Shown here: piece after piece, positions 4,051 through 58,158 of the stretch
How the letters are laid out: each line of letters starts with the position of its first letter
Numbering within the stretch: position 1 is the stretch's first letter
NCBI GenBank assembly: GCA_963823435.1
Contig: CAWGLN010000001.1
Location: forward strand, 138,365 to 202,364
Direction: 5' to 3'
Source of the DNA: an uncultured Gammaproteobacteria bacterium
GTDB lineage: Bacteria > Pseudomonadota > Gammaproteobacteria > Steroidobacterales > BM003
Length of the DNA stretch: 64,000 nt
Notes under the pieces: generated by a model
Databases searched by the model: none
Seen by the model: only the letters and a program-made list of their open reading frames with translations
What the model was told of the DNA's origin: nothing
Translations under genes and position numbers: made by a program

Positions 4051-7000
4051 TGGCCCCCGAACAGACCGTCACCACCATTGATGGCAATGAAGCCGCGGCC
4101 TACGTCGCCTACCGGGTCAACGAGGTATGCGCCATATACCCCATCACGCCCTCCTCCACCATGGCCGAACTGGCCGATGAGTGGGTCGTGAAGGGTGTGG
4201 AGAATCTTTGGGGCAAACAGCCCGATGTGGTCGAAATGCAGTCCGAGGGCGGTGCCGCAGGCGCCGTGCACGGAGCCCTGCAGGCCGGCGCACTCACCAC
4301 CACCTTTACAGCCTCCCAGGGGCTGATGCTGATGCTGCCTAACATGTACAAGATCGCTGGTGAACTGACCAGCACCGTGTTTCATGTGGCCGCCCGCTCT
4401 CTGGCCGCCCAGGCGCTATCCATTTTTGGTGATCACAGCGACGTGATGGCCGCCCGCACCACCGGGTTCGCCTTGTTGTCCTCGACATCGGTGCAAGAGG
4501 CCCATGACATGGCGCTGATCGCCCAGGCCGCCTGCCTCAGGGCCAGGGTCCCGTTCCTGCATTTTTTCGACGGCTTCCGGACCTCGCATGAGGTCAACAA
4601 GATTGTCCTGCTCTCCGATGAACAAATCCGTAGCATGATCGACGATGAACTGGTTTACGCTCACCGCAAACGCGCGCTGAACCCGGACAATCCTTTCATT
4701 CGTGGCACCGCCCAGAATCCTGACGTGTATTTTCAGGCCAGGGAAACCGTGAACCCCTACTACGAGGCGGCACCCGGAATCGTTCAGGACGCGATGGATC
4801 AACTGGGTCGGCTCACTGGAAGGCATTACAGGCTGTTCGACTATTACGGCGCCAGCGACGCTGACCGGGTCCTGGTTATCATGGGATCCGGGTCGCACAC
4901 GGTGCGCGAAACCGTGGACGTGCTGATGACCCGCGGGGAGAAGGTGGGTGTACTGACGGTTCGCCTGTACCGGCCCTTCTCCATAAAAGACTTCGTACAG
5001 GCGTTGCCCGGGACAGTCAGCCGTATTGCAGTATTGGACCGGACCAAGGAAGTAGGCGCCACCGGCGAGCCTCTGTATCAGGACGTAGTCACCGGTCTGG
5101 TCGAAGCGGTGAACAGCGGTCTGTTTCCTCGTTTGCCAAGGATCACAGGCGGTCGCTACGGGCTTTCTTCCAAAGAATTCACCCCCGGCATGGTGGCCGG
5201 TATTTTCGGCGAACTGGTCAAGGAACAACCGAAAAACCATTTCACCATAGGCATTAACGACGACGTTTCGGGTACCAGCCTGGTCTTTGAACCGGATTTC
5301 CCGCTACCGGACCAGGGTATGACCCAGGCCCTGTTTTATGGGCTGGGTGCAGATGGCACGGTCGGCGCCAACAAGAACAGCATCAAGATTATTGGTGAGG
5401 AGACCAACCTGCATGCCCAGGGCTATTTCGTCTATGACTCCAAAAAATCAGGTGCCCAGACTGTTTCACACTTGCGCTTTGGACCAGAGCCCATCAACAA
5501 GCCCTACCTGATTCGCGAAGCTGATTTCGTCGCCTGCCACCAGTACGCCTTCGTGCAAAAAATTGACATGCTGGCCCATGCCAAGCCCGGCGCGACATTC
5601 TTGCTCAACAGCCACCTTGGCCCGGACCAGGTCTGGAATGATATGCCCAGGCCGGTGCAGCGGGCGCTCCTGAAAAAGAAACTCAGGTTCTTTGTCATTG
5701 ACGCTACGAAGGTGGCCCAGTCTGCCGGTATGGGCACACGCATCAATACGATTATGCAGACCTGCTTCTTCGCCTTGTCCGGTGTGCTGCCCCGGGACGA
5801 GGCGATCGAAAAAATCAAACAGGCGATCGAAAAAACCTATGCTCGCAAGGGCGACGAAGCCATACACAAGAATTTCCGGGCGGTGGATGCAACCCTGGAT
5901 TACCTGCATGAAGTCCTGATCCCGGAAACCGAAAACAACGACAGGGAATTCCCGCTGGCGGTGTCGGAGTCCGCCCCGGAATTCGTACGCAAGGTAACTG
6001 GCGCCATGATCGCGGGCAAGGGCGACGACCTGCCCGTCAGCGCCCTGCCGGTGGATGGTACATACCCTGTTGGCACAACGCGCTGGGAGAAACGCAACAT
6101 CGCCGACCAGGTTCCACTGTGGGACCCGGACCTGTGCATACAATGCGGAAACTGCAGTTTCGTCTGCCCCCACAGCGTGATTCGTGCCAAGTTCTTCCAC
6201 AAGGACTACCTGGGACAAGCCCCGACAGGTTTCCCTTCGTCCCATATTATCGCCCGGGGCTTTCCCGAGACGCGGTACTCCCTGCAGGTTTACACCGAAG
6301 ATTGCACGGGCTGTCGGCTGTGCGTCGAGGCCTGCCCCGTGGTGGATCCCGAAGTACGCGGCCGCAAGGCCATCAATATGACGCGCAAGCTGCCGTTGCT
6401 GGAGCAAAGCAGGGAACACCTCAAATTCTACGAGAACCTGCCTGTCAATGATCGCAGCAAGGTTGAATATTCCCGGGTCCAGGGCGCCCAGTTCCTCGAG
6501 CCGCTGTTCGAGTTCAGCGGAGCTTGCGCAGGGTGCGGCGAGACGCCCTACGTGCGTCTGTTGTCACAGTTGTTTGGTGACCGTCTGATTGTCGCGAACG
6601 CCACCGGTTGCTCGTCCATTTACGGCGGTAATTTGCCAACCACGCCGTGGACAACCAACGCCGAGGGCAAGGGTCCCGCCTGGTCCAACTCCCTGTTCGA
6701 GGACAACGCGGAGTTCGGCTTGGGGATGCGGGTCACGGTCGACAATCACACCGCCCTGGCACGCAGCCTGTTGTTGAAGTTACGGGACCAGCTTGGTCCT
6801 GAACTCGTGGACGAGTTACGCGCAGGCGCCCCAGGTATTCGAGTCCGAGATTCGCCTGCAACGGGAACGGATTGCCACGCTCAAAAGCCGTTTGAACAAA
6901 TTGGATACGCCGGACAGCAAGAGCCTGTTGTCGGTGGCGGACAACCTGGTGCGACGCAGTGTCTGGCTGGTTGGCGGAGACGGCTGGGCCTACGACATCG

Positions 7001-7623
7001 GGTCGGGCGGCCTGGACCATGTCATGGCGCTTGGACGCAATGTGAATATCCTGGTAATGGACACCGAGGTCTACTCCAACACGGGCGGCCAGATGTCCAA
7101 GGCAACCCCCACGGCAGCCACCGCAAAATTTGCCGCGGCCGGCAAGAGAGTGGGTAAAAAAGACCTGGCCCTGCAAGCCATTTCCTACGGCAATGTGTAT
7201 GTCGCCCAGATCGCCATGGGCGCGAACCCCCAGCAAACACTGCTGGCCCTGAGAGAGGCGGAAGCCTATGACGGCCCCTCCCTGGTTCTGGCTTACAGCC
7301 ATTGCATAGCTCACGGCATCAATATGCACCAGGGCTTGACCCAGCAAAAGCTGGCAGTCGCCAGCGGCTACTGGCCGCTGGTTCGCTACAACCCCGTGTT
7401 GCGGACCGAGGGCAAGAATCCCTTTGTTCTGGATTCGACTCGCCCGACCATCAAACTGAAAGACTACGCCTACAACGAATTGCGCTACCGAATTCTTTTG
7501 CGCAGCAATCCGGGGGAAGCTGGAAAGCTGATGCAACTTGCCCAGGAAATGGTGGATCTGCGCTGGAGAACCTACGAAGGAATGGCCAGCCAGACAGCCA
7601 GGGATTTCCAACCGGTGGCCTGA
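4050..7623 (+). pseudogene. nifJ: Pyruvate:ferredoxin/flavodoxin oxidoreductase (PFOR, NifJ/YdbK type), reading frame broken by one apparent +1 indel near 6822
   Basis: The N-terminal frame (ORF 3981..7157, true ATG at 4050, MAPEQTVTTIDGNEAAAYVAYR...ITPSS) reads PFOR domains I-V, including both ferredoxin-type Cys motifs (CIQCGNCSFVCPH, CTGCRLCVEACP). After ...LGPELVDEL it turns into nonsense. The TPP-binding C-terminus (GGDGWAYDIGSGGLDHV, DTEVYSNTGGQMSKATP) continues in the +1 frame (ORF 6793..7623). Confidence 0.88.
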
Positions 7624-30220: not shown

Positions 30221-32001
30221 ATGGATCTCAAGACATTAACCTTTATTGTCGTGGGCAGCTACTTTCGCCCTCTACATCGCAATTGCAATTTATTCCCGTG
30301 CCAAGAGCACAGGGGATTTCTATGTTGCAGGCAAGGGTATTCACCCGGTAGCAAACGGCATGGCCACGGCAGCTGACTGGATGTCGGCAGCATCATTCAT
30401 TTCCATGGCGGGCCTGATAGCCTTCCTTGGCTACGGCGGTTCGGTGTTCCTGATGGGCTGGACGGGCGGTTACGTGCTGCTCGCCATGTTGCTCGCACCC
30501 TACCTGCGCAAGTTCGGCAAGTTCACGGTTCCGGAGTTCATTGGTGAGCGTTATTACTCACAAAGCGCCAGGATCGTGGCTGTCATCTGCCTGATCGTTG
30601 CCTCTATCACTTACGTGATCGGGCAGATGAAAGGCATCGGTGTGGCGTTCTCACGATTCATGGAAGTGGATTTCACCCACGGCCTGATGGTGGGCATGGG
30701 TATCGTGTTCATTTATGCCGTGCTCGGCGGTATGAAAGGCATCACCTATACCCAGATTGCCCAGTACTGCGTGTTGATTTTCGCCTACACGATTCCGGCG
30801 ATCTTCATCTCCTTGCAGCTGACCGGCAATCCTATCCCGCAATTGGGATTGGGTAGCACCATGGCGGATGGCAGCGGCGTGTACCTGTTGGACAAGCTGG
30901 ATCTGATCGTGACCGACCTGGGTTTCAGGGAATACTCGACATCGTCCAACGGGAATATGCTTAACATGTTCCTGTACACACTGTCCCTGATGATCGGTAC
31001 CGCGGGTCTGCCCCACGTCATTATCCGTTTCTTCACCGTACCCAAGGTGCGGGACGCCCGTGCGTCAGCCGGCTGGGCATTGGTCTTCATCGCGATCCTG
31101 TACACCACAGCTCCGGCCGTGGGCGCCATGGCTCGCCTGAACCTGATCAATACTATCCAGACCGGTCCGGTAGGCTCTCCCACAGGCAATGTGCTGATAT
31201 CAGAACTGCCTGACTGGATGGGTCGCTGGCAGGCTACCGGCCTGCTGAACTGGGAGGACAAGAACGGCGATGGCCGTATCCAGTTCTACAATGAAGCAGG
31301 TATGGGTGACAAAGCGGCGGCCTATGGCTGGGCTGGCAATGAGATGACCAAGGTGGACAATGACATCATGGTGTTGGCCAACCCGGAAATCGCCGGTCTG
31401 CCCAACTGGGTGGTTGCCCTGGTAGCTGCAGGCGGTATTGCGGCGGCGCTGTCCACTGCGGCCGGTCTGTTGCTTGCCATCTCCTCGGCAATTTCTCATG
31501 ACCTGCTCAAGGGCGTGTTCATGAAGGATATTTCCGAGAAGAACGAGCTGATGGCAGGTCGTATCGCCATGGCCGGCGCCATTGTCGTGGCGGGGTACCT
31601 GGGTCTGAATCCACCCGGCTTTGCGGCACAGGTGGTGGCTTTGGCCTTCGGTCTGGCGGCCTCGTCGATTTTCCCTGCCCTGATGATGGGTATCTTCGAC
31701 AAGCGCGCCAACAGCAGCGGCGCCGTGGCTGGTATGTTGACCGGTCTGGGCTCGACCTTGCTGTACATCTTCTGGTTCAAGGGATGGTTCTTCATTCCTG
31801 GCACCGAGATGGCGGCCAATAACGCCTGCCAACTGGATCCTGGGTATTTCACCCGAGGCCTTTGGTGCGGTGGGTGCATTGCTTAACTTCGCGGTGGCTT
31901 ACGCGGTATCACACAATACTGCACCGCCTCCCGAGCACATCCAGCACCTGGTGGAAGACATTCGTATTCCGCGTGGCTCTGGTGGAGCAGCGGCTCACTA
32001 A
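30221..32001 (+). pseudogene. Sodium:solute symporter (SSS family, large subunit of the DUF4212-associated type, ActP-related), two apparent +1 indels near 30257 and 31827
   Basis: The ATG at 30221 gives MDLKTLTFIVVG. The frame then shifts into ORF 30246..31886 (ATFALYIAIAIYSRAK...VANGMATAADWMSAASFISMAG). The C-terminus (NWILGISPEAFGAVGALLNFAVAYAVS...GGAAAH*) is in a third frame that ends at 32001. Confidence 0.85.
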
Positions 32002-32088: not shown

Positions 32089-33930
32089 ATGATTGAACTG
32101 ACTGAAATTCTCGACTTTTTCCTGGCCCACCCGCCATTTGACCAATTGCAGCGCGAGCAACTCAGGGAATGTCTGCGTGGGCTGCAAGCCGAATATTTTC
32201 CCAAAGGCGGTCAGATTCTGGAAATAGGGCAGGAAAATCACTTGCTGCACATCGTGCGCAGTGGCGCGGTGGAACTTCACGACAGTGACAATAGCCTGGT
32301 CGCCCGAATGAGTGAGGGCGAATCCTTCGGTTATATCTCGTCTGCTCAGCGGAAAACCGGTACGCTACCGCGCCGTGGCGGCCGAAGACGCGTTGATCTT
32401 CCACCTGCCAGCCGATTCGTTCGGGCAATTGAGGCGGGCGGCGCCTTCACTGGATCACTTTTTTACCGAGGCGTTTGCCGAAAGACTGAACATGGCGATC
32501 CGGGACAAGGGACCGGAGTGAGCTTGCCGCAACACGGCTTGGCGACCTGGCCCGGCGTGAATTGGTGCAAATGGACAGTGCCTCCTCGGTCGCGGACGTG
32601 GCCGCAATCATGACCGAGAAAGGCGTTTCTTCAATCTTGCTGAGCGAAGGTGGTGCCGTTGCCGGCATCCTGACCGACAAGGATCTGAGGCGACGGGTTG
32701 TTGCCACCCGCCTGCCCTACGACACGCCGGTGCGGGACATCATGACCCACGACCCGGTAATCGCCAGCCACGACTCCAACGTGGCCGAAGCGCTGCTGAT
32801 CATGATGCAGAGAAACATCCATCACCTTCCGGTGCTTCGGGACAAGGTACCTGTCGGCATGCTCACGCTTGCCGATCTGCTGCGCGCAGAAGCGGAACAC
32901 CCCATTTATATGGCCGGCGACATCCTCAAACAAGGCGACGCCGAAAGTATCGCCAGGGTGAGCAAGCGCCTGCCTGAACTGATTCAGAGAATGATCGGCG
33001 CGGACGCCACGGCCGACCAGATCGGCAAGGTCGTTACCACCGTGACCGATGCCATCACCAAGCGATTGATCCAACTGGCAATCACTGAAACTCGGCCCAC
33101 CACCGGTAAAATTCGCCTGGCTGGCACTGGGGTCCCAGGGTCGCCAGGAGCAGTCAGCAAAATCTGACCAGGACAACGCCTTGCTGCTGGATGATTCCTT
33201 CCTGCCTGAACACGATGCCTACTTTGAACAGCTCGGCAAGTTCGTCTCTGACGGACTGGATGCTTGTGGCTACGTATATTGTCCGGGCGATGTGATGGCC
33301 TCCAACACGCGGTGGCGACAACCCCTTAAAGTGTGGAAAGGCTACTTCAGACGCTGGATAGCAGAACCCGAGCCCAAGGCACTCATGTACGCCAATATAT
33401 TCTTCGATCTCAGGATCGTTGAAGGCCATGACGCACTGGTAAAGGAACTCAAGGAACATATCGCCGACCTGGCGCGCAAAAATCATTTCTTCCTGGCAAT
33501 GATGGCCAAGAATGCCATGGCATTTCAGCCTCCCCTTGGCTTTTTCCGCCAATTCGTTCTGGAAAAGGGTGGCGGACACGGTGATTCCCTGGATCTGAAG
33601 CACCGGGGCGTCATACCGATAGTGGAATTGGCCCGTATCTATTCCCTGGCGGGCGGTGAGGTCCGGGTCAACAGCCGACGCAGGCTTCGGGCCGCCGTAT
33701 TGACTGGCCAGATTACCGAGGGCACGGGCCGTAGTCTGGAAGACGCGCTGGAACTGATAGACTACGTTCGCATGAACCACCAATGGGAAGAAATGAAAAA
33801 CGGTCTGCCACCGAGCAACTATGTCCCGCCGAGCTTCCTGTCTCCCTTGCAGCGACAACACCTGAAGGCCGCCTTCAATGTGGTACGCACCGCCCAGGCT
33901 GCACTGTTGAACCGGTTTGGGTTGAACTAG
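32089..33930 (+). pseudogene. cNMP-binding / tandem CBS / DUF294 nucleotidyltransferase-domain protein, three apparent +1 indels near 32341, 32510 and 33090
   Basis: Four consecutive ORF pieces in frames 1, 2, 0, 1 read as one protein. They are the cNMP-binding domain (32089.. and 32312..32521), CBS pairs (32562..33167: VSSILLSEGGAVAGILTDKDLRRRV, NIHHLPVLRD), and DUF294 (GPPPVKFAWLALGSQGRQEQSAKSDQDNALLLDD... through 33181..33930). Confidence 0.82.
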
Positions 33931-34116: not shown

Positions 34117-34808
34117 TTGCTCCGATCGTTTATTGACAGACTGGCCAGGAAGCGGCTTTTAGCCAGCGCAAACTGGGAGCCCATGCGCGGGTTCCTGCTT
34201 TCAGAACCGCCTGACCGCCAGCGGTTCTGGAGGGACGTGGAACTGCTTGTCGCGGACCTCGAAACCACCGGACTGGATGCCAGGCAGAACCACATTGTCA
34301 GTTTTGGCTGGGTACTTATTTCAGGAGGCCGGATACATCTGGACCAGGCGCAACATATCGTGGTCCGATCAGGCACACCAATGAATCAAAGCGCCACCAT
34401 CCATGGTATTTTTGACAGCCACGTGGCCCAGGGAGTGACCATGGAATCGGCCCTGGCTGAACTTCTGGATCAGCTTCGTGGCAGGGTCCTGGTGCTGCAC
34501 CATGCCCCGCTGGACCAGGCTTTTCTAAACCAGGCCTGCATCCAGGTCTGCGGCCAGAAACTGGTGACGCCGATAATCGACACCATGGCCCTGGAGAAAG
34601 ACCCGGTTGGATCGACGTGACCAGCCGATCCAGCCAGGAATGCTGCAGGCTTGGCGCCGTGCGCGAACGCTATGGACTCGGCCCGATACGGGCGCACAAC
34701 GCCTTGACCGATGCCTTGGCAACGGCGGAATTGTTGCTGGCGATAATTGCCCATTCCGAAAGGGGCGGAGAACCTCTTCGATTGAAACACTTGCTTGCGC
34801 GTATTTGA
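34117..34808 (+). pseudogene. DEDDh 3'-5' exonuclease (DnaQ/epsilon-like), two apparent +1 indels near 34603 and 34646
   Basis: Exo I is VADLETTGLD and Exo II is HHAPLDQAFL, both in ORF 34117..34620. LDRRDQPIQPGML lies in frame 2. Exo III (AHNALTDALATAELL) lies in ORF 34617..34808. Confidence 0.8.
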
Positions 34809-34828
34809 GGACGCGCAAGCCTGACATT

Positions 34829-34988
34829 CCGGGAAGCCTCTGATCTTGCCCGGACTAAGTAGCTTGCTGGCAAACCGCAATTTTGAGGGGCCAATCTTAA
34901 GTGCCGGAGCCGGCTCGCCAGGACCGGCAAGATAGAAGCCCGGTCTATGTCGCAAGACACATTCATGACCGAATCAGAATCTCCCTAG
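34829..34988. repeat. MITE-like imperfect-palindromic element, copy R3 (same orientation as R1)
   Basis: gggaagcctctgatcttg...aagtagcttgctggc...ttcatgaccgaatcagaatctccctag aligns with R1 end to end. Its terminal CTA (34985-34987) is the stop codon (TAG) of the minus-strand KKAPA gene. Confidence 0.75.
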
Positions 34989-35584
34989 CGCTTCCTGCCG
35001 GCTTTTTTCTTGGCCGGAGCCTTCTTGGCCGGAGCCTTCTTGGCCGGGGCCTTCTTGGCCGGGGCCTTCTTGGCCGGGGCCTTCTTGGCTGGGGCCTTCT
35101 TGGCCGGGGCCTTCTTGGCCGGGGCCTTCTTGGCCGGAGCCTTCTTGGCCGGGGCCTTCTTGGCCGGGGCCTTCTTGGCCGGGGCCTTCTTGGCCGGAGC
35201 CTTCTTGGCCGGAGCCTTCTTGGCCGGAGCCTTCTTGGCCGGGGCCTTCTTGGCCGGAGCCTTCTTGGCCGGAGCCTTCTTGGCCGGGGCCTTCTTGGCC
35301 GGAGCCTTCTTGGCCGGGGCCTTCTTGGCCGGAGCCTTCTTGGCCGGGGCCTTCTTGGCCGGGGCCTTCTTGGCCGGAGCCTTCTTGGCTGGAGCCTTCT
35401 TGGCTGGAGCCTTCTTGGCCGGGGCCTTCTTGGCCGGGGCCTTCTTGGCTGGAGCCTTCTTGGCTGGAGCCTTCTTGGCTGGAGCCTTCTTGGCCGGGGC
35501 CTTCTTGGCCGGAGCCTTCTTGGCGGGCAAGGCCGGAACTTCTGCTTCCGACTCCTTTGCCACTTCCTCGATATCCAGACCCAC
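34985..35584 (-). CDS. Lys/Ala/Pro-rich (KKAPA)n histone H1 / AlgP-like basic protein; start uncertain (GTG at 35584 proposed; could instead be a C-terminal extension of adk)
   Basis: The minus-strand frame reads ...[21 protein letters not shown](KKAPA)x~35 KKKAGRKR*. All nucleotide variation among the repeat units is synonymous in this frame only. No ATG lies downstream of the adk stop. The GTG at 35584 is in frame, with AAGG 5 nt upstream. Confidence 0.6.
35011..35520. repeat. Tandem repeat: 34 exact-length 15-bp units (tggcYggRgccttct), plus degenerate units on each side
   Basis: Counted directly: 16 units c/G, 12 c/A, 5 t/A and 1 t/G. Only two positions per unit vary. All three plus-strand frames are also open, which produces the LLGRG and AGAFL shadow ORFs. 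Confidence 0.97.
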
Positions 35585-35627
35585 CGCTGCCTTGAGGGCC
35601 TTTTCTGCCTGCAGGCGCGCCTCAGAT

Positions 35628-36281
35628 TCAGCCAGGGCCGCCTTCAGACTCTTCTGCAGATCGCTTGAAAACGACCTCGGAATCACCCACGGCATCCACG
35701 GTATAAAGAATGCCCTGCTCACTGTAGTAGTCAACCAAAGGTCGCGTCTGACTTTCATAGACCTTGAGACGATTCTCGATGGTGGCCTCGGTGTCGTCCG
35801 CGCGCCGATGCAGGCGCCTGCCACATTTGTCGCAGACATTCTCCAGGATGGGCGGCGAGGTGTAGTAATTGAACACTGCCCCGCAACTACCACAACTCAA
35901 CCTGCCGGTCAGCCTTTGCATCAGGATATCGCTGTCCAGATCCATCAACAGCGTTGCCTGCAAAGGCAGACCGATCTGCTCCAGCATCCCGTGGAGGGCA
36001 CGGGCCTGGGCCAGGTTCCTGGGAAAACCATCCAGGATAAATCCCTTGCTGGCGTCTGGCTGCCGTAGCCTTTCCTCAATTATGCCCAGCACCAACTGGT
36101 CGCTGACCAATTGACCCGCGTCCATGGTGGTCTTGGCCTGGAGACCCAGTTCCGACCCTGAGGCTACCGCCTCGCGCAGCAAATCACCCGTGGAAATCTG
36201 GGGAATGGCATATTTTGTAACCAGTTTCTGAGACTGGGTACCCTTTCCAGAGCCCGGGGCACCAAGCATGACGATTCTCAT
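35628..36281 (-). CDS. adk: Adenylate kinase (last 13 codons as written are atypical; see findings)
   Basis: [16 protein letters not shown] (P-loop), [10 protein letters not shown], and a LID with CGSCG...CDKCG (Zn-type). The annotated frame ends [13 protein letters not shown]. The +1 frame instead encodes the Adk-like C-terminal helix [12 protein letters not shown]. Confidence 0.9.
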
Positions 36282-36475
36282 GGCAACATTCCTGAGGTAG
36301 ATGTAAGTGTGGGGCGTGCAGCCAATTCCACTCGCCCGTAGCAGGGGCTAACCTACATCCAGCACTTGCCAGCGTCAATTCACAAATGGTGTGAACCCTC
36401 GTTTCAGATCGGCTATGCTTTCCGTCGCAATGGGTACCCAGACCCCCTTTACGTGGAACTGGCAAGGAAACCAAA

Positions 36476-37738
36476 ATGTCTCGAAAAAATGCTTTTTACG
36501 CCCAATCCGGCGGTGTCACCGCTGTTATCAACGCCTCCGCCTGCGGTCTGATCGAAACAGCCCGCAAAAACCGCGACCGCATCGGCAAGGTTTACGCCGG
36601 ACGCGACGGCATTATCGGGGCTCTCACCGAGGACCTGATTGATACCAGCAAGGAAAGCGCCCGGGATATAGCCGCTCTCAAACACACGCCGGGTGGCGCA
36701 TTTGGTTCATGCCGGTACAAGCTCAAGGGTCTGGAGGAGAATCGTGCCCAGTACGAGCGTCTTATTGAGGTCTTTAAGGCCCACGATATCGGTTATTTTT
36801 TCTATAACGGCGGCAACGACTCCATGGACACCGCCCACAAGATATCCCAGATCGGCAAGACCCTGGGTTATCCCATAATCTGTGTGGGTATTCCGAAAAC
36901 CGTCGATAATGACCTGCCGATCACCGATAACTGCCCGGGTTTCGGCTCGGTGGCCAAGTACATTGCCGTCTCTACCAAGGAAGCAGCCATGGACGTATTG
37001 TCCATGTCCCGGACCTCCACCAAGGTATTCGTGCTCGAGGTCATGGGCAGGCATGCGGGCTGGATCGCTGCCGCAGGCGGTCTGGCAGCCGAGGGGCCTG
37101 GCGATGCGCCACATATCATCCTGTTTCCCGAGGTGGCCTTCGACCAGGAGGCCTTCCTGGCCAAGGTGAAGAACACCGTGGAAACCCGAAGCTACTGCGT
37201 GGTCGTAGTCTCCGAGGGTGCCCGCTACGCCGACGGTCGCTTCCTGGCCGATGCAGGAAGCAGAGACGCCTTCGGTCATGTGCAGCTGGGTGGCGTGGCG
37301 CCGGTGGTTGCCCAGATGGTCCGGGACAAGCTCGGCTACAAGTACCACTACGCGGTGGCCGATTACCTGCAGCGCTCGGCCCGCCATATTGCCTCCCAGG
37401 TGGACCTGGAGCAGGCTTATGCCGTGGGTGAGGCGGCTGTGAAACTTGCCCTGGCGGGCAAGAATGCAGTGATGCCCATCATCGTTCGCAAAGCAGAAAA
37501 CCCTTATCGCTGGGGTATTGGCGAGGCCAAACTGGCCCGCGTGGCCAACAAGGAAAAAACCCTGCCCAGGCGCTTTATCACCCGGGACGGCTTCGGAATT
37601 ACCGCAGCCGCACGCCGCTACCTGGAGCCCTTGATCGTGGGCGAAGCCTATCCGCCATACAAGAACGGTACTCCCAGCTATGTGCGTCTGAAAAATCTGC
37701 CTGTCGCCAAAAAGCTCGGGACCGACTTCGTGGTATAG
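36476..37738 (+). CDS. pfp: Pyrophosphate-dependent 6-phosphofructokinase (PPi-PFK)
   Basis: 420-aa PfkA-family ORF. It has GGNDS in place of the GGDGS of ATP-PFK, and PKTVDNDL in place of PGTIDND. This puts Asp and Lys at the two positions (E. coli 104 and 124) that are diagnostic for PPi use. It is adjacent to an H+-PPase. Confidence 0.8.
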   Translation: MSRKNAFYAQSGGVTAVINASACGLIETARKNRDRIGKVYAGRDGIIGALTEDLIDTSKESARDIAALKHTPGGAFGSCRYKLKGLEENRAQYERLIEVFKAHDIGYFFYNGGNDSMDTAHKISQIGKTLGYPIICVGIPKTVDNDLPITDNCPGFGSVAKYIAVSTKEAAMDVLSMSRTSTKVFVLEVMGRHAGWIAAAGGLAAEGPGDAPHIILFPEVAFDQEAFLAKVKNTVETRSYCVVVVSEGARYADGRFLADAGSRDAFGHVQLGGVAPVVAQMVRDKLGYKYHYAVADYLQRSARHIASQVDLEQAYAVGEAAVKLALAGKNAVMPIIVRKAENPYRWGIGEAKLARVANKEKTLPRRFITRDGFGITAAARRYLEPLIVGEAYPPYKNGTPSYVRLKNLPVAKKLGTDFVV

Positions 37739-37950: not shown

Positions 37951-39969
37951 ATGTCACAGCAGACGGCGCTAATGTTGGCGTTGGGTGCATCCATACTCGC
38001 GGTAGTCTACGGACTGTTTTCCGCACAATGGATTCTCGGCAAAAGTGCGGGCAATGAGCGTATGCAGGAGATCGCGGGAGCGATTCAGGAAGGCGCCAAT
38101 GCCTATATGAATCGCCAATACACCACGATCGGCATAGTGGGCGTTGTTCTTTTCGCGGTCCTGGCGGTATTCCTGCCCAGCATCTGGACCGCCATCGGAT
38201 TCGCCATAGGCGCGATCTTCTCCGCCCTGGCCGGCTATGTCGGCATGTTTGTGTCCGTTCGCGCCAATGTGCGTACGGCCGAAGCAGCCAGGGAAGGCCT
38301 GAGTCCGGCCCTGCTGGTCGCTTTCCGCGGCGGCGCCATCACCGGCATGCTCGTGGTTGGCCTGGGTCTGATGGGCGTGGCCGGCTACTACTGGCTGATG
38401 ATTAGCCAGGGAGTTGCGCACCCGGTAGAGGCCCTGGTTGGCCTGGCTTTTGGCGGCTCCCTGATTTCCATTTTCGCCCGATTGGGTGGCGGCATCTTCA
38501 CCAAGGGCGCCGACGTGGGCGCTGACCTGGTGGGTAAGGTCGAAGCCGGTATTCCCGAGGACGATCCGCGCAACCCGGGCGTCATCGCGGACAACGTGGG
38601 CGACAACGTGGGTGACTGCGCCGGCATGGCTGCCGACCTGTTTGAGACCTATGCGGTGACCCTGATCGCCACGATGCTGCTTGGCGGACTGATGATTAAC
38701 GAGATTGGCCCCAATGCGATAATCTACCCGATCGTGCTGGGCGCCGTGTCCATCGTGGCCTCGGTCATAGGCACCTTCTTCGTACGTGCCAGCGAGGGCG
38801 GCAAGATCATGACGGCCCTGTACAAGGGCGTCTTTGTTTCCGGCATCCTGGCGGCCATAGCCTTCTATCCCGTGACCAATACGCTGATGGCGGAAGGCGG
38901 TCAGGCCATGGACCTCTACTGGGCGGCCCTGATTGGCCTGGCCCTGACCGCGGCCATGGTGGTTATCACCGAGTACTACACCGGCACCGAGTACAGCCCG
39001 GTGAAGAAAATCGCTGAAGCCTCCCTGACCGGTGATGCCACCAACATCATTGCCGGCCTGGGCGTGTCCATGAAATCCACTGCCCTGCCGGTAATCGCGG
39101 TGTGTATGTCCATCTGGGGCGCCTACGAACTGGCTGGCCTGTATGGCATCGCAGTTGCTGCCACCTCCATGCTGTCCATGACCGGTATGATCGTGGCCCT
39201 GGACGCCTTCGGCCCCATCACCGACAACGCCGGTGGCATCGCTGAAATGGCAGAGCTTCCGGCGGACGTACGTAACGTCACCGACGCGCTGGACGCAGTG
39301 GGTAACACCACCAAGGCCGTGACCAAGGGCTACGCCATCGGCTCGGCGGGACTGGCTGCACTGGTGCTGTTTGCTGACTACACGCACACCCTGGAAAAAG
39401 GCGGTCATGCCGACCTGTCCTTTGACCTGTCCAACCCCTCGGTGATCATCGGCCTGTTTATCGGCGGCATGGTGCCCTACCTGTTCGGCGCCATGGCGAT
39501 GGAAGCGGTAGGTCGTGCGGCCGGCTCGGTGGTGACCGAAGTTCGCCGCCAGTTCCGTGAAATCCCGGGCATCATGGAAGGCACCACCAGGCCCGACTAC
39601 TCCCGTGCGGTGGACTTGCTGACCCGTTCGGCGATCAAGGAAATGATCGTGCCTTCGCTGCTGCCCTTGTTGGTACCGGTAGTTGTCGGCCTCTTGCTTG
39701 GCCCGGTAGCACTGGGTGGTCTGCTCATGGGTACCATCGTCACCGGTTTGTTCGTGGCCATATCCATGACCACCGGTGGTGGCGCCTGGGATAACGCCAA
39801 AAAGTATATTGAGGATGGCAACTGTGGCGGCAAGGGTTCCGATGCCCACAAGGCCGCTGTTACCGGTGACACCGTGGGAGACCCCTACAAGGACACCGCC
39901 GGTCCGGCCATCAACCCGTTGATCAAGATCATCAACATTGTGGCCCTGCTGATCATCCCCCTGCTCTAG
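37951..39969 (+). CDS. hppA: Membrane-bound proton-translocating pyrophosphatase
   Basis: ORF 37936..39969. The ATG at 37951 has a GGGAGGGAG Shine-Dalgarno. It has the H+-PPase motifs [48 protein letters not shown] and [13 protein letters not shown]. Confidence 0.95.
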
Positions 39970-40018: not shown

Positions 40019-40258
40019 GTCCGGATTATTGACAGGCGAGATCCCGGAGCCGCAGGGATGGCCGGGTCTGCCGAATACCCTGATCTTCTCGTGAACACAG
40101 CTGTCTCGTCATGGGCCAGGCAGGCGAGATCAGCCACAGTCGGCGCCAGGAGTTGGGCGCCTGGGCCGCACAAGGAGCAATCTGCACCCGGGGGTGGTTG
40201 CCTAACCCGGTTCAAATCAGAGCTCGAAGGGACCTCCCGACGCCCTTGCCTCGGGGCT

Positions 40259-42579
40259 TCAGGCCGACATGGCATCCCGGGGATACAGGGACCGCGGGTG
40301 CCCAATGGCATATCCCTGGACAAAATCCACACCCAGGGCTTTTACGGCCTCGAAACTGACGTCGTCCTCAACTTCCTCGGCAATGATTTTGAAGTTCAGG
40401 CTCTTGCCGAGTTCGACCATGGCCGAAACCAGCGCCTGGTTGGCATAATCTTTCGACAGGCTGCGGACAAAGGAGCCATCAATCTTCAAGTAATCGATTG
40501 CCAGGTTCTTCAGATTGGCCAGCGAACCTATGCCACTACCGAAATCATCCAATGCAAACTTGCAGCCCATGCCGTGCAGTACACTGATAAAGCGATGGGC
40601 CTGCTTCAGATTGGCCACCACTGCGCCCTCGCTCACCTCGAAGCAAATACCGGCGGGTGCGACACCGCTACGATCCAGGGTCTCTACGACAAATTCCAGG
40701 AAGGTATCGTCCGCCAGGGTTTGACCAGAAAGATTGATGGCACAGCTTCGATGCGCGGGAAGTCGAATGGTTTCCCGCCCCAGGGCCGCCAGCGCCGTTT
40801 GCACCACCCAGCGATCCACGTAGGGCATGAGATGATAACGCTCCGCGGCACCCATGAATTCGCCGGGCAAAATCTCATTCCCCTCCTCGTCCCGCATACG
40901 CAGCAAGATCTCCATCGCCGGCCCGGGAACTGCTCGCCCAAAGGTCGACACAATCGGCTGAACATGCAGATCGAAGCGGTTCTCCCGCAGCGCAGTCTGG
41001 AGGCGTTGCAGCCACATGATTTCGCCCCGGTGGCGGGCCACGGCTTCATCCCGCGCCGAATACACATGCACCCGTCCACGCCCTTGTTGCTTGGCTATAT
41101 AGCAGGCCGAATCAGCAGCACTGACCAGATCCTCCAGGCTGCCGCTTTCGTTGGTTATTTCAACCATGCCCACGCTCACACCGATGTTGAAAATGCGGTC
41201 GCGCCAGACAAAACGATAGTCGCGCACGGCCCTCACGACGTCGTCGGAAATCTGCCGGGCCTTGTCCATCGGGCATCCGAGCAAAATCATGCCGAATTCA
41301 TCACCGCCCAGGCGGCCTACCAGGTCGGAATCTCTCACCTTGTCCCGAATGATGCCGGCGATTTCCCGCAACAAATTATCGCCCGCAGTGTGGCCGCAGG
41401 TGTCGTTTACGGCTTTGAACCTGTCCAGGTCCAGATAGCAAAGTATGTGTGCACTGTTTTTGGATCGCGCATCGCTCAATGTCTCGGTCAGTCGGCGCTC
41501 AAATTCCCGCCGGTTGATCAGACCGGTCAAGGCGTCATGACTTGCCTGGTAGGACATCTGGCGAGTCAAGCCGCGAATCTCCGTGACATCGTGAAGGACC
41601 ACGACCGCACCGATGGTAGCGCCGGAGATGTCCCGGATCGGGGAAGCGTTCAAATCTACCGAAAATTCCTGGTCACTTGCCGACGAGGCCAGCAGCGCAC
41701 GGCGGCCCACGCTCACCCGCTGTCCGTTTTCCAGCGCGATGCTCACCGGATCGGATATCGGTTTGCGGTCAAAATCGTCGACCAGCGACACCATGCTGGC
41801 GAAGTTCCGCCCCAGGGCATCGGCGCTGCGCACACCGATCAGGTGCTCGGCAGCGGAATTCATATAGTCGATATTGCCGCGGCGGTCGGTGGTAACCACA
41901 CCTTCCGAAATAGACTCCAGGGTAACCCGGGTTTGCAGCTTGCCGTGTTCCAGCGCATCCAGCATGGCTTTTTCCGTGCTGATGTTCTGGATTGAGGTGA
42001 GCAGGGCCGTTTGTTCACGGAATTCCGTAGGCTTGGAAGACAAACGTACCCAGATGCCATTTCCGTGGCGGTCCAATACCTGCACATCCATGGGTTCTGC
42101 CTGGGGCTTCCCTTTCAGCCACTCATTCATGGCCTCTGACGACCTGCTGCCGATAATCGGGGTGCAGTAGGTCTACAAAACTCTCTGCCGACGATGTCCG
42201 CCTGGCGAATACCGGTCAGGGACCCGAATCCGGTATTTGCAAACAAAATCTCTTGCTTGTGCACCAGTATCGCCTGGTCAAGATTGTCGGCAAGATTGTG
42301 GAACAGAACGTCTTGTCGGCGCAGTTTACGCTCGTTGGCATGGGCGAGTTCCAGAATCCGGTTGATACCAAGCTCCAGACCCGCCAGGTCATCCTCATCG
42401 TCGCTGAGGGAGACTCGCTCATGGAGCAACGCGCTCTTGGCGATTTGATCCACTTCCCGGGACAGGTGAAACAAATGTCTCTGGGCACGTCTCCCCTTCC
42501 AGGCAAGAACGCAGACATACGCGAGCACCACAAGCAAAACTGCGGTTATCAGTAACATTGTCTCGCCACCCACGGGCAT
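40259..42579 (-). pseudogene. Membrane-anchored PAS-PAS-GGDEF-EAL signalling protein, two apparent +1 indels near 42178 and 42130
   Basis: The N-terminal TM plus first PAS are in ORF 42127..42645 (...FANTGFGSLTGIRQADIVGREF). The segment VDLLHPDYRQQVVRGH is in a second frame. The rest is in ORF 40259..42130 and includes GGDEF (RLGGDEFGMIL) and EAL (EILLRM..., DDFGSG). Confidence 0.82.
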
Positions 42580-43609: not shown

Positions 43610-45045
43610 ATGCGCCAGATTTGCCGAGTGTTTCTGAGCCTGTGTTTCGCCTTGCTGTCCATGCAACAGGCGGGCGCGGCCTCCCTGCTGGATGTCTACC
43701 AGAGTGCCCTGATCAGTGACCCCTCCATACGGGAGGCAGAGGCCAATCGCATGGTGGCCTATGAGCAAAAGCCCCAGGCACGCAGCCAGTTCTTGCCCCA
43801 GGTCAATCTGACCGGCAATTACCAGACCCGCAACCGCGAACGGTGACAATGACCAGGTGCAGTATACGGAAAATGGACTGGTCGCCATTCCCAACACTTT
43901 CGAGACCGGTTCGGATGACTGGAATCTGGATGTCTCCTTGCGCTCAGACACTGTTCCGCTGGGACCAGTACCAGACCTATAAACAGGCAGACAAGGTGGT
44001 AGCGAAAGCTGATGTGGACTACGAGATCGCCCGCCAGGGCTTGATGCTCAAGGTCTCCGAGCGGTATTTCAATGTCCTGGCGGCCAAAGACACCCTGGGC
44101 GCAGCAGAAGCAGCCCTGGGGGCCACTGCCCGGCAATTGGAACAGGCCGAGAAGCGTTTTGAGGTTGGCCTGATCGCCATCACCGACGTAAAGGAAGCCC
44201 AGGCCGCCTACGACAACACCACCGCCGCAGTAATCGCTGGCAAGCGCCAGCTGGCCACGGCACTTGAGTTGCTGCGTGAATTGACCGGTGAGTATTACTC
44301 GGAATTCCAGAAACCGGGCGATGATTTACCCCTCGCGATCCCGGCTCCCCAGGACCAGCAGGCCTGGGTCGATACGGCCCTGCAGCAGAATCTGAGCCTG
44401 GTTTCCAGCCAGATTTCGGTAGATATCGCCAGGGACGGTATCAAGATACAACGCGGTGGTCATTACCCCACCCTGGATTTGATCGCCAACTATCGCCTGG
44501 ATGATTCCGCCGGTAGTACCACCAGTACCGGTCCGGATCCAGATCCGACCGCTCCACCCGGATCAACGGTGACCTCATCTTTTGATACCGCCCAAAACGT
44601 TACCTCCGATTTGATAGGCATCCAGCTTATTGTTCCGATTTACTCGGGTGGCGGCACCTCGTCGCGGGTCAACGAGTACGTATACCGCCACAGGGCCGCC
44701 AAGGAAAGTCTGGAGCGGGTGATGCGCGAGACTGAAAGAACCGCGCGTGACGCCTACCTGGGCATCATGGCCGAGATGGCACGGGTGAAGGCGCTTAGAC
44801 GTGCAACGGAATCCAGCCAGACGGCCCTGGAGGCTACGGAGGCGGGATTTGAGGTGGGCACCCGTACTACCGTTGACGTACTGGCCTCCCGCCGCACCCT
44901 GTTCGACGCCGAAACCAATTACGCACGTGCCCGTTACGACTACATTCTGAATATCATTCGCCTGAAACAAGCTGCGGGAATACTCAATGAGGAAGACCTG
45001 GCCCGAATCAACGAATGGCTGGATTTGACGGTGAGTACGCGCTAG
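43610..45045 (+). pseudogene. tolC: Outer-membrane efflux channel TolC, two apparent +1 indels near 43841 and 43944
   Basis: The ATG at 43610 has an AAAGGA Shine-Dalgarno and a signal peptide (MRQICRVFLSLCFALLSMQQAGA). The gene reads through three frames: LLDVYQSAL...NYQTRN, then GDNDQVQYTENG...LDVSLR, then QTLFRWDQYQTYKQA...FEVGLIAITDV.... Confidence 0.85.
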
Positions 45046-46352
45046 GAGGCGTCGGGGAAAAGATCCGCGAGCAGCGGCTGCAGCAAACCAAGCAGTCGAG
45101 GCAACGTCTCCCGATTCTCGGCCAGCACTTTCAATCCCGCGGTAGCGAGTTGCGCGCGCGCCGCGGGATCATCAAGTAACACCTGGACCTCGGCCGCAAG
45201 ACCGGGCGATCCCTCGACAACCCGCATGGCCCTGGCCTGCAAAAACAACTCGGTAATATCCGCAGCATTGAAGTTATGCGGGCCAACCACCACCGGCACA
45301 CCAAGGGAGGCAGGCTCCAGCAGGTTGTGACCGCCGATGGACACCAGGCTGCCGCCCACGAAGGCCACATCCGAGGCCGCATAAAACATCATCAACTCCC
45401 CCAGGGTATCCACCAGCAGCACCTCGGTTTGCGCCTCCGGGGACTCGCCCAGACTGCGGCGGCGGCAGCTAAAACCGGCTTTCTCCACCAAGGCCGCCAC
45501 CCCGTCGAATCGCTCTGGATGCCTGGGTACAAGTATCAAAAGGGCCTGCGGATTATGCTCCAGGAGCCGCCTGTGGGCCTCAAGCACCAATTCTTCCTCG
45601 CCCTCGTGGGTGCTGGCCGCCAGCCAGACCGATCGATCCGCCATATGGGCCTTGCGGTAGGCCTTGCCCCGCTCCGCCACGTCGGCGGCTGACTCAATGC
45701 CAAACTTGATGTTTCCCACAACGTGGGTTCGCAGAGGATTGGAGCCTATGGAAAGAAATCGTTCGGCATCCTGCTTGCTCTGGGCTGCTATTACTATTCC
45801 ATGCGACAGCGTCTGGCGAAATAACTCTACCAGTAGGCGGTACTTCTTCACGGACCGTTCAGAAACCCGGGCATTGGCCATGACCAGGGGAATGCCGCGA
45901 CGACCACATTCATGGTAAAGATTTGGCCAGATCTCGGTTTCCATGATGATCGCCAGGCGAGGATTGAAGCGATTAAAGAATCTCTTCACCGCGCCCGGCA
46001 GATCATAGGGCACATAGCTATGCATGACGGTGTCCCCAAACAGCGCACGCGCCCTGTCCGCGCCGGTGGGGGTCATGGTCGTAATGACCAGGGGCACCCC
46101 CGGCTTGCGCTCCATCAGGAGCGAGATCAGAGGCGCCGCGGCCTGCACCTCGCCGACTGATACAGCATGTACCCAGATACTGGGCTTGTCGGTCCGCGCC
46201 CGACCAAAGCCCAGGCGCTCGTCCAGGCCTTTCCAGTAACCGTGGTTGGAAAATCCTTTTTTTATCAGGAAAGCGAATACCAGCGGTGCCACGAGCAGCG
46301 ACAAGATGACGTAGGCGAAGCGCAGCAGCCCGGCCTTGAGATCACGGTTCAC
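45042..46352 (-). CDS. waaA: 3-deoxy-D-manno-octulosonic acid (Kdo) transferase
   Basis: 436-aa ORF. It has an N-terminal membrane anchor, [11 protein letters not shown], and the GT30 C-terminal domain ([17 protein letters not shown]). Confidence 0.9.
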
Positions 46353-47772
46353 GGCTTGCGGATAGCGTCAATAATTGAGGACGTTGATCGGCCCTCCAGA
46401 AAAGACAGGACTTTCACCTCGCCGCCATTGTCCAGCACACAGCGGGCCCCGGCGATCTGTTCGGGCAGGTAGTCGCCTCCCTTCACCAGGACATCGGGCA
46501 ACACGTCGCAGATCAGGGCTTCCGGGGTGTCCTCGCTGAAAGGCACCACCCAGTCCACTGCCGCCAGACCACCCAGGACCGCCATGCGGTCATCAAGGTT
46601 GTTCACGGGCCGACCTTCGCCCTTTAGCTTGCGCACCGAGGCATCATCGTTGACCGCGACTACCAACCGGTTACCCAGGGCCTTGGCCTCTTCCAGGTAG
46701 GCCACGTGCCCCCGGTGCAATATGTCGAAACAACCGTTGGTCATCACCACGCGTTCGCCACGCGCCTGGGCCTCGCGTACGAAAAGCAGTAACTGCTCTC
46801 GCCCGGGTATCGCGCGCCCCCCTTTTCCATGCTGGTGCAATGCAAGTCGCAACTCAGACACAGACACGGTGGCCACACCGATCTTGCGCACGACGATTCC
46901 GGCGGCCAGGTTGGCCAGGCGAGCCGCATCGGCCATCTCCAGTCCGGCTGCCAGGCCGGCGCCCAGCATCGCAATGACAGTGTCTCCCGCGCCGGTCACA
47001 TCGAATACTTCGCGGGCCTCGGCCGGCAAATGATGCGCCTCACGGTTGGCCGAGACCACGGACATGCCGCGCTCGCTGCGGGTGACCACGATGTGCTCAA
47101 GCCCGAGATCGGAAAGCAGGCCCGCGGCTTCGTGAACCAGCGTTTCATCATCAGGACATGCGCCGACCACGGCTTCGAATTCGGACAGGTTCGGGGTAAT
47201 CGCAAAGGCCCCTGCATAGCGACCGAAGTCCCGGCCCTTGGGGTCGACCAGCACCGGAACGCCGCGCTTGCGACAGGCGCAAGAATATCCTGGATCTGCT
47301 GCAGCGCGCCCTTGTCGTAATCCGAACAAATGACCAGGTCGGTCTGATCCAGCAGCTGTGTCACGCGCCTGGTCAGACCGGGCGCACATTCTGCGGGGTA
47401 GCGGTCCTCGAAATCCAGGCGTATCAACTGCTGGTTTCGACTGAGCACCCTCAACTTGGTAATCGTGGGCGAACCCGCTACGGTCTCAAATTCGCAGCGA
47501 ATATTCCTGGCTTGCAACAACCCGGCTAACTCGGTGGCTGCTTCATCCTCACCCACCAGACCCACCAGGGTGGTTTGCACACCCACGCTGGCAAGGTTCA
47601 CGGCCACGTTGGCTGCACCTCCCGGCCGATCCTCGCGCTCATTTACCCGGACTACCGGTACCGGAGCCTCGGGAGAAATCCGGTTGGTGGGCCCAAACCA
47701 GTAGCGATCGAGCATGACATCGCCAACCACCAGGACCCGGGCCTGGCGAAATTCCGGAATGCTAAGGGTCAT
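46349..47772 (-). pseudogene. hldE: Bifunctional D-beta-D-heptose 7-phosphate kinase / heptose 1-phosphate adenylyltransferase, one apparent -1 indel near 47278
   Basis: The kinase N-terminus is in ORF 46996..47772 (VLVVGDVMLDRYW...[15 protein letters not shown]). It then continues as [15 protein letters not shown]...GAGDTVIA plus the cytidylyltransferase domain ([16 protein letters not shown]) in ORF 46349..47389. Confidence 0.88.

Positions 47773-56484: not shown

Positions 56485-58158
<1,674 letters not shown>

Follow-up and report, generated by a model that had tools for sequence, protein, structure and literature searches.

An adenylate kinase gene with a KKAPA-repeat tail, its reading frame probably broken by a one-base assembly error, in an uncultured gammaproteobacterium

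The window analysed here, a stretch of 64,000 nucleotides (nt) from contig CAWGLN010000001.1 (positions 138,365 to 202,364 of the forward strand) of assembly GCA_963823435.1 from an uncultured Gammaproteobacteria bacterium, carries an adenylate kinase gene (adk) whose open reading frame (ORF) closes shortly before a long array of KKAPA-encoding repeats begins in another frame. The locus raises the question of whether the gene ends there as an ordinary adk or whether kinase and repeats belong to one protein. The reading preferred here, with a probability of about 0.8, is that of a single gene for an Adk-tail protein of 431 amino acids (aa), 45 kDa and isoelectric point (pI) 10.4, with an ORF broken after codon 207 by an assembly error and a tail that would act as a tether. 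A preliminary description of the window, made from the sequence and its ORFs, had already set out some of the possibilities and is taken up where the results bear on it. Proteins and genomic loci used for comparison are numbered with P and L, respectively, and coordinates are collected in Table 1.

The adenylate kinase core and the position of the frame break

Profile searches showed that the Adk product matched Pfam PF00406 (ADK) with 184 bits (threshold 26.8) and PF05191 (ADK_lid) with 43.8 bits (threshold 26.6). The product corrected by removal of one base scored 276.5 bits with the NCBIfam equivalog NF001380 (cutoff 251), in which residues 1-214 were matched end to end, and 242 bits with TIGR01351 (cutoff 168). 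The P-loop GAPGSGKGT (pattern GxPGxGKGT) was located at residues 7-15 and the lid cysteines C130, C133, C150 and C153 were invariant in the family alignment. Two structures, PDB 5g3y and the Adk of Geobacillus stearothermophilus (PDB 1zin), aligned without gaps with residues 1-212, through ...VFadi..., and the latter has the same long zinc lid. By these sequence features the locus encodes a canonical long-lid, Zn-type adenylate kinase for which catalytic activity is predicted. It differs from canonical Adks in a longer C-terminal helix, which reaches about residue 232 in the modelled relative P0004, and in the acidic linker and 178-aa polycationic repeat tail that follow, whereas ordinary Adks end at 213-217 aa.

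As deposited, the C-terminal helix was out of the core frame, being cut after residue 207 with foreign residues substituted. The preliminary description had held that the annotated frame ends in a way unlike an Adk C-terminus, and this was reproduced; none of the best 120 homologues shared the frame-0 C-terminal continuation of the 217-aa product. It had also held that the +1 frame runs on without a stop through a linker into the repeats. Indeed, this frame had no stop between a point well within adk and a TAG codon, and encoded the linker, then (KKAPA)34, then KKKAGRKR.

The break was located with a DNA alignment of the junction (181 columns) that comprised the window, L081 (98% nucleotide identity to the window), L084 (a short-read megahit contig, k141, whose Adk protein is 83% identical) and the metagenome-assembled genome contigs L001 and L002. 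The sole internal gap of the five sequences fell where the relatives read AAGCG-CCTG or AAGCG-CCTC (Lys-Arg-Leu) and the window reads AAGCGATCTG (L002 merely ends early), and pairwise alignment with L081 gave the same single internal gap. At 35661-35660 the window has AT instead of a single C. A tblastn search with the L084 protein covered residues 1-207 in frame -3, and the frame changed from -3 to -1 between 35661 and 35659. The closest relatives read VVFKRLQKSL or AVFRRLQKSL at this point, and the frame-0 VVFKR is genuine because the relatives share VVFKR/AVFRR and the Adk structures align ungapped through ...VFadi.... Judged from these alignments, the true junction is ...VVFKR-LQKSLKAAL....

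Two candidate origins of the surplus base were rejected. The preliminary description had placed a slip in a run of four T (plus-strand 35668-35671, which reads AAAA); the alignment puts the surplus base at 35661/35660, after FKR and 7-8 nt downstream of that run on the coding strand, and a homopolymer error there does not account for it. A basecalling error linked to Dam (GATC) methylation was likewise dismissed, as the GATC is only present with the surplus base and the contexts of the other indels had no common motif.

Deletion of either the A or the T at 35660/35661 gave an identical product of 431 aa, 45.3 kDa and pI 10.35, in agreement with one of the two earlier proposals, a single indel within a fusion of about 431 aa. 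The same deletion returned the C-terminal helix to the core frame, where it lies in all relatives. The helix had thus been assigned correctly to the +1 frame beforehand, but its residue-for-residue match to the D-L-x-K-x-L spacing of the E. coli Adk tail (RADLEKIL) was partly coincidental. An AlphaFold2 (AF2) model of the relative P0004 showed a confident Adk fold with a helix over residues 201-232 at a predicted local distance difference test (pLDDT) score of about 90, so that the break after residue 207 falls 6-7 residues into a conserved helix.

The repeat array itself indicated which of its frames is used. Tandem Repeats Finder (TRF) reported a period of 15 nt with 34.5 copies, 95% matches and 0 indels at 35007-35524. 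Differences among the 34 units were confined to unit positions 9 and 12, both of them third positions of codons in the KKAPA frame, and each unit still encoded KKAPA; the remaining two frames would yield mixed peptide units. Because the repeat variation falls only on its third codon positions, the KKAPA frame is the translated frame. Inside the repeat, every substitution between the window and L081 sat on the same synonymous sites. Codon changes between the two numbered 15 synonymous and 3 non-synonymous in the kinase part, and 2 and 1 after the break. The window and L081 also differed in the last part of the KKAPA array and in the sequence just past the stop (window 34822-35011 compared with L081 11270-11405), which could be aligned only with many gaps. 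Folding of the 3' flank was no better than that of shuffled sequence (z = -0.9) and so gave no indication either way of an internal start or a terminator.

Tailed adenylate kinases in relatives and the nature of the tail

The best 120 homologues were mostly proteins of 300-460 aa with N-terminal ADK and ADK_lid domains, followed by Lys/Ala(/Pro/Val/Thr)-rich repeats with a varying unit sequence and a constant character. In the five closest proteins (P0001-P0005; 83-89% identity, 310-392 aa) the junction ran on into K/A-rich repeats, and the eight closest relatives all crossed it in one frame into K/A-rich sequence. Continuous fusions were encoded in P0001-P0005, P0121 and P0123 and at loci L001, L002, L081 and L084. 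P0121, encoded at L081 in the 98%-identical genome, was unbroken at the junction. The short-read contigs L084 and L085 (the latter also from megahit, k141) encoded a complete 310-aa fusion, while L001 and L002 were open through the junction until the contig ended inside the repeat. No relative had a stop after KAAL(A), and the adk loci of the relatives were all single-frame fusions, none of them with separate adk and KKAPA genes. The GTG at 35584, suggested earlier as the start of a separate KKAPA gene, lies in a stretch that encodes the conserved in-frame ...ALKAAVGLD..., which argues against that role.

In order to compare Adks independently of the tail, the 207-aa kinase part was searched against 1.84 billion 50%-identity representatives and the nearest single-domain matches (46-63% identity) were retrieved. 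About 42 distinct clusters had tails of 60-331 aa with a K+R fraction of 0.2-0.46, and about 15 were ordinary proteins of 210-227 aa. The top of this search was dominated by multi-Adk-domain proteins (500-2700 aa, 2-14 matched stretches), which have an unrelated architecture and were not considered further. In the genome collection, Adks beyond the closest relatives (e.g. those of Firmicutes and Magnetococcales) were 213-217 aa long. Public databases contained hundreds of tailed Adks annotated simply as 'adenylate kinase'. Judged by these comparisons, the Adk-polycation fusion is a real, conserved architecture that is widespread in uncultured gammaproteobacteria. The preliminary description knew of no such architecture; it proved to be common among public metagenome proteins, but a paper describing it was indeed not found. 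A search for papers on Adks whose tails are H1-like or rich in lysine, in literature that omits most subscription journals, returned none, and the architecture is apparently uncharacterised in the literature.

Some further variants were observed among long Adks and other tailed enzymes. P0163 and P0202, together with locus L003 (ORF from 6001), had an extra C-terminal segment past the K-rich region that ended in ...(F)xxKWEKDxxKKL. From its sequence the segment seems to be helical, and it may represent a further conserved module of a sub-clade. NCBIfam has a 335-position 'adenylate kinase' equivalog (NF010381/PRK13808), which shows that a model already exists for at least one further family of long Adks. 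In the NCBIfam model of valyl-tRNA synthetase (NF011492/PRK14900), the C-terminal portion of about 100 positions matched the K-rich tail, a hint that Lys-rich tails recur on housekeeping enzymes.

Of the 185 residues that follow position 246 in the corrected product, 74 were K or R and 1 was D or E, giving the tail a charge of about +73, and the tails of the relatives ended similarly basic (...KKR, ...RKR or ...RRR). In the AF2 model of P0004, residues 236-310 were disordered (pLDDT <50) and had no secondary structure, and on this model the KKAPA tail is predicted to be intrinsically disordered. The corrected gene would thus encode a three-part protein, in which a long-lid Adk is followed by an extended helix with a short acidic linker and then by a disordered polycation of 34 KKAPA units. 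By analogy with the proteins compared below, the tail may bind electrostatically to a cellular polyanion, such as nucleoid DNA, RNA or ribosomes, or polyphosphate (polyP) granules, and so act as a tether. Tethering would concentrate Adk there and could promote local interconversion of AMP, ADP and ATP.

Lysine-rich repeat tails have been described in several bacterial proteins. The KPAA tail of Pseudomonas AlgP is found in association with polyP granules, whose spacing depends on it, and binds DNA (PMC9239181), and the disordered KPAA region of PhaF binds specific mRNAs (PMC12818456). The tail described here resembles those of AlgP and PhaF in being a long C-terminal Lys/Ala/Pro tandem array, predicted to be disordered, with a repeat number that varies among relatives, and resembles AlgP in its very high positive charge (+55 in AlgP). 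However, the unit is KKAPA, with five residues and two lysines, instead of KPAA, the partner at the N-terminus is an enzyme of core metabolism and not a regulatory or phasin domain, and the likeness shown is one of composition. The C-terminal domain of topoisomerase TopA in Streptomyces and Mycobacterium offers another housekeeping enzyme with a Lys-repeat tail, and in Streptomyces the lysine repeats stabilise the enzyme-DNA complex (PMC5714199). What the tail does for TopA is obvious, since that enzyme acts on DNA; Adk, by contrast, does not act on a nucleic acid. Repeats of PAKKA/KKAPA-like chemistry are also present in mycobacterial HupB/Hlp and in HBHA (PMC2409343). These actinobacterial proteins, Rv3852 included, belong to a different phylum. 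The tail also matched the Pfam HC2 profile (PF07382), and chlamydial Hc2 is itself a stand-alone nucleoid-condensing protein.

Frame breaks across the assembly and competing explanations

The window lies within a 1.69-Mb contig and L081 within a 1.07-Mb contig. Over 21 kb the two differed by 419 substitutions and 44 indels, the indels being mostly single-base and within coding sequence. With eight syntenic L084 proteins as tblastn probes, five of the eight genes in the window were split over 2-4 frames and three of the eight in L081. L084 itself has the same gene order and carries all eight genes as single ORFs (0/8 split). The breaks in the window and in L081 were reciprocal. Most of the SSF symporter and a 1297-aa PAS-HisKA gene were broken in L081 and intact in the window, whereas the cNMP-CBS-DUF294 and PAS-GGDEF-EAL genes were broken in the window and intact in L081; the phosphofructokinase (PFK)-family and H+-pyrophosphatase (H+-PPase) genes were unbroken in both. 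The adk gene was broken at different places, at the junction in the window and inside the repeat in L081, where a 2-nt gap (CCCCGG to CCCG) in L081 10001-11407, at window 35345-35346, turns KKAPA into QEGSS. The public 468-aa protein P0121, in which KKAPA changes to QEGSS halfway along the tail, is a frameshift artefact.

Outside the region covered by L081, the genes for pyruvate:ferredoxin oxidoreductase (PFOR) and HldE were also divided between overlapping ORFs, and these splits look like further frame-breaking indels. The earlier remark that many other indels occur in the window was thus borne out. The segment at 40087-40249 (L081 6045-6196), which separates the H+-PPase gene from the convergent GGDEF-EAL gene, contained 16 of the 44 indels; this intergenic segment is hypervariable or poorly assembled. 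Because frame breaks are dense across the assembly, a single break in the 1.3-kb adk gene is unsurprising. Overall, the frame break in adk most likely arose from an error of one base in the consensus of an error-prone long-read metagenome assembly, and the view that it reflects sequence quality is strongly supported by the reciprocal breaks and by the intact short-read relative L084.

Several points weigh against the preferred reading of one 431-aa gene with a tethering tail. The 217-aa product is also the one called in public annotation (P0006; NCBI, ENA), which confirms that the sequence was deposited in this form, and an indel outside any homopolymer, as here, is not what nanopore sequencing most typically gets wrong. 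The profile matches of the tail are driven by composition: Pfam HC2 scored 65.5 bits against a gathering threshold of 40, and the NCBIfam model Rv3852_fam scored 107.3 bits against a cutoff of 100 as a low-complexity match in four short stretches. Two further NCBIfam models also gave low-complexity matches on the tail, hist_H1_lk_Burk with 69 bits (cutoff 80) and histone_lik_HC2 with 36 bits (cutoff 135), and HC2 was in addition precomputed for P0002, P0013 and P0121. The suggested role as a tether is drawn wholly from AlgP, PhaF, HupB and actinobacterial TopA, and DNA, RNA, polyP and membrane would be equally eligible targets on present evidence.

The gene call of the deposited genome and the position of the indel outside a homopolymer would also suit an insertion that is real and recent in this strain, by which Adk would be truncated and the KKAPA tract left as an untranslated relic or served by a weak internal start; a very recent event could leave the tail looking intact. 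This explanation is unlikely. The adk gene is normally essential, and the mutation would strip most of the conserved helix 201-232 from the enzyme. The 98%-identical genome is intact at the site, and the difference is a compound one, C to AT, which if biological would require two adjacent mutations. Frame breaks were present in at least seven other genes of the assembly, including hldE and PFOR, and those tested were intact in the short-read relative. A consensus scan for promoters and terminators on both strands of 34700-36500 found nothing, and hence no promoter-like site ahead of the KKAPA tract.

A programmed +1 ribosomal frameshift at AAG CGA U CUG, from which a 23-kDa untailed and a 45-kDa tailed Adk would be made from one mRNA, is very improbable, even if both frames are suitably open in the window and two differently localised isoforms would be a plausible regulatory device. 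The site is unconserved and all relatives encode the fusion in a single frame, while the frame-0 continuation is found in no homologue. By inspection, CGA-U-CUG is no known +1 slippery motif and has no +1 re-pairing potential, and neither an in-frame stop or rare-codon pause nor an upstream Shine-Dalgarno-like stimulator of the prfB type was seen. No RNA family was returned by an Rfam scan of the entire window, so that neither a riboswitch nor a frameshift element of a known kind lies near the break. The other earlier proposal assumed two compensating indels about 40 nt apart, which would leave a 217-aa Adk ending in ...KAALA* and a separate KKAPA gene with a GTG or TTG start. The resulting length would be normal for a bacterial Adk (213-217 aa), but the missing stop after KAAL(A) in the relatives refutes this proposal, and its probability is close to nil: the DNA alignment has a single gap column, the segment after the junction is conserved in the adk frame in P0001-P0005, P0121, P0123, L001, L002 and L084, and the model of P0004 gives residues 201-232 as one continuous helix.

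Gene neighbourhood and meaning of the tailed kinase

Table 1. Features of the window at the adk locus and at other genes with frame differences.
Feature	Position	Strand	Basis or remark
adk ORF as deposited	36281..35628	minus	ATG at 36281, 217 aa, TGA at 35628-35630
adk kinase part, residues 1-207: P-loop, nucleoside monophosphate (NMP)-binding region, four-Cys zinc lid	35661..36281	-	profiles, structures, tblastn
Frame-breaking site, one surplus base: window CG-AT-CTG, relatives CG-C-CTG (Arg-Leu)	35660..35661	-	alignments, tblastn
Premature TGA, reached only via the surplus base; closes the 217-aa product	35628..35630	-	
Residues 208-253 of the corrected product: rest of C-terminal helix and acidic linker	35522..35659	-	in-frame in P0001-P0005, P0121, L001, L002, L084
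34 tandem 15-nt units, (KKAPA)34	35012..35521	-	TRF, codon pattern, Pfam HC2
Terminal KKKAGRKR and TAG stop (34985-34987) of the fusion ORF	34985..35011	-	ORF reading
Divergent intergenic region, adk / PFK-family gene	36282..36475		no sigma-70 consensus match
PFK-family gene	36476-37738	+	divergent from adk
H+-PPase gene	37951-39966	+	next after PFK-family gene
SSF symporter C-terminus	31820-31998	+	split in window, single ORF in L084
cNMP-binding/CBS/DUF294 gene	32089-33930	+	split in window, single ORF in L084
RNase_T-family exonuclease gene	34117-34808	+	split in window, single ORF in L084
PAS-GGDEF-EAL gene	40262-42579	-	split in window, single ORF in L084
OEP gene	43765-45042	+	N-terminus differs from L081 by two 1-nt indels
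PFOR	3981-7157 / 6793-7623	+	TPP_enzyme_C in separate overlapping ORF
HldE	46349-47389 / 46996-47772	-	PfkB domain in two overlapping ORFs, profile positions 2-105 and 154-297

The tailed adk was divergent from pyrophosphate-related genes even in lineages only 55-63% identical to the Adk of the window. A PFK-family gene and an H+-PPase gene were found beside adk at L081, L082 and L084, in addition to a soluble pyrophosphatase (PPase) at L082, and a soluble pyrophosphatase alone was found at L083. This neighbourhood, which looks conserved, suggests a phosphoanhydride-economy context and does not bear directly on the tail. Elsewhere in the window, a 9-nt tandem repeat of seven copies at 56491-56553 on the minus strand, at the 3' end of a 553-aa ORF (56485-58146), encoded the ordinary GGM-repeat C-terminus typical of GroEL.

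A more specific role for the tail can be proposed, tentatively and with a low probability. As a dedicated localisation device in a large and mostly uncultured gammaproteobacterial clade, the tail may dock Adk on polyP granules or at the polyP-nucleoid interface, where polyP-derived ADP would be converted locally to ATP together with polyphosphate kinase (PPK) and polyP:AMP phosphotransferase (PAP). Two ADP would yield ATP and AMP, and the AMP would be recycled by polyP:AMP phosphotransferase, which would amount to a phosphoanhydride economy organised in space. This proposal fits in so far as the gene adjoins PFK-family, H+-PPase and soluble PPase genes. A polyP:AMP phosphotransferase activity has been explained by PPK1 and Adk acting together (reviewed in PMC3163519).

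On the preferred reading of a single tailed gene, the publicly called 217-aa Adk (P0006) would be a truncated artefact. In the part examined, an indel breaks the frame about once in every 1-2 kb of coding sequence, and every odd ORF of this assembly needs to be treated with caution. The tailed Adks join an essential, diffusible enzyme of nucleotide homeostasis to a histone-H1-like polycation of 60-330 residues. Should the tail bring Adk to the nucleoid, to RNA or to polyP granules, these bacteria would have a spatially organised adenylate energy-charge equilibrium, and the principle of the disordered Lys-repeat tether of AlgP, PhaF and TopA would, if true here, extend to central metabolism.

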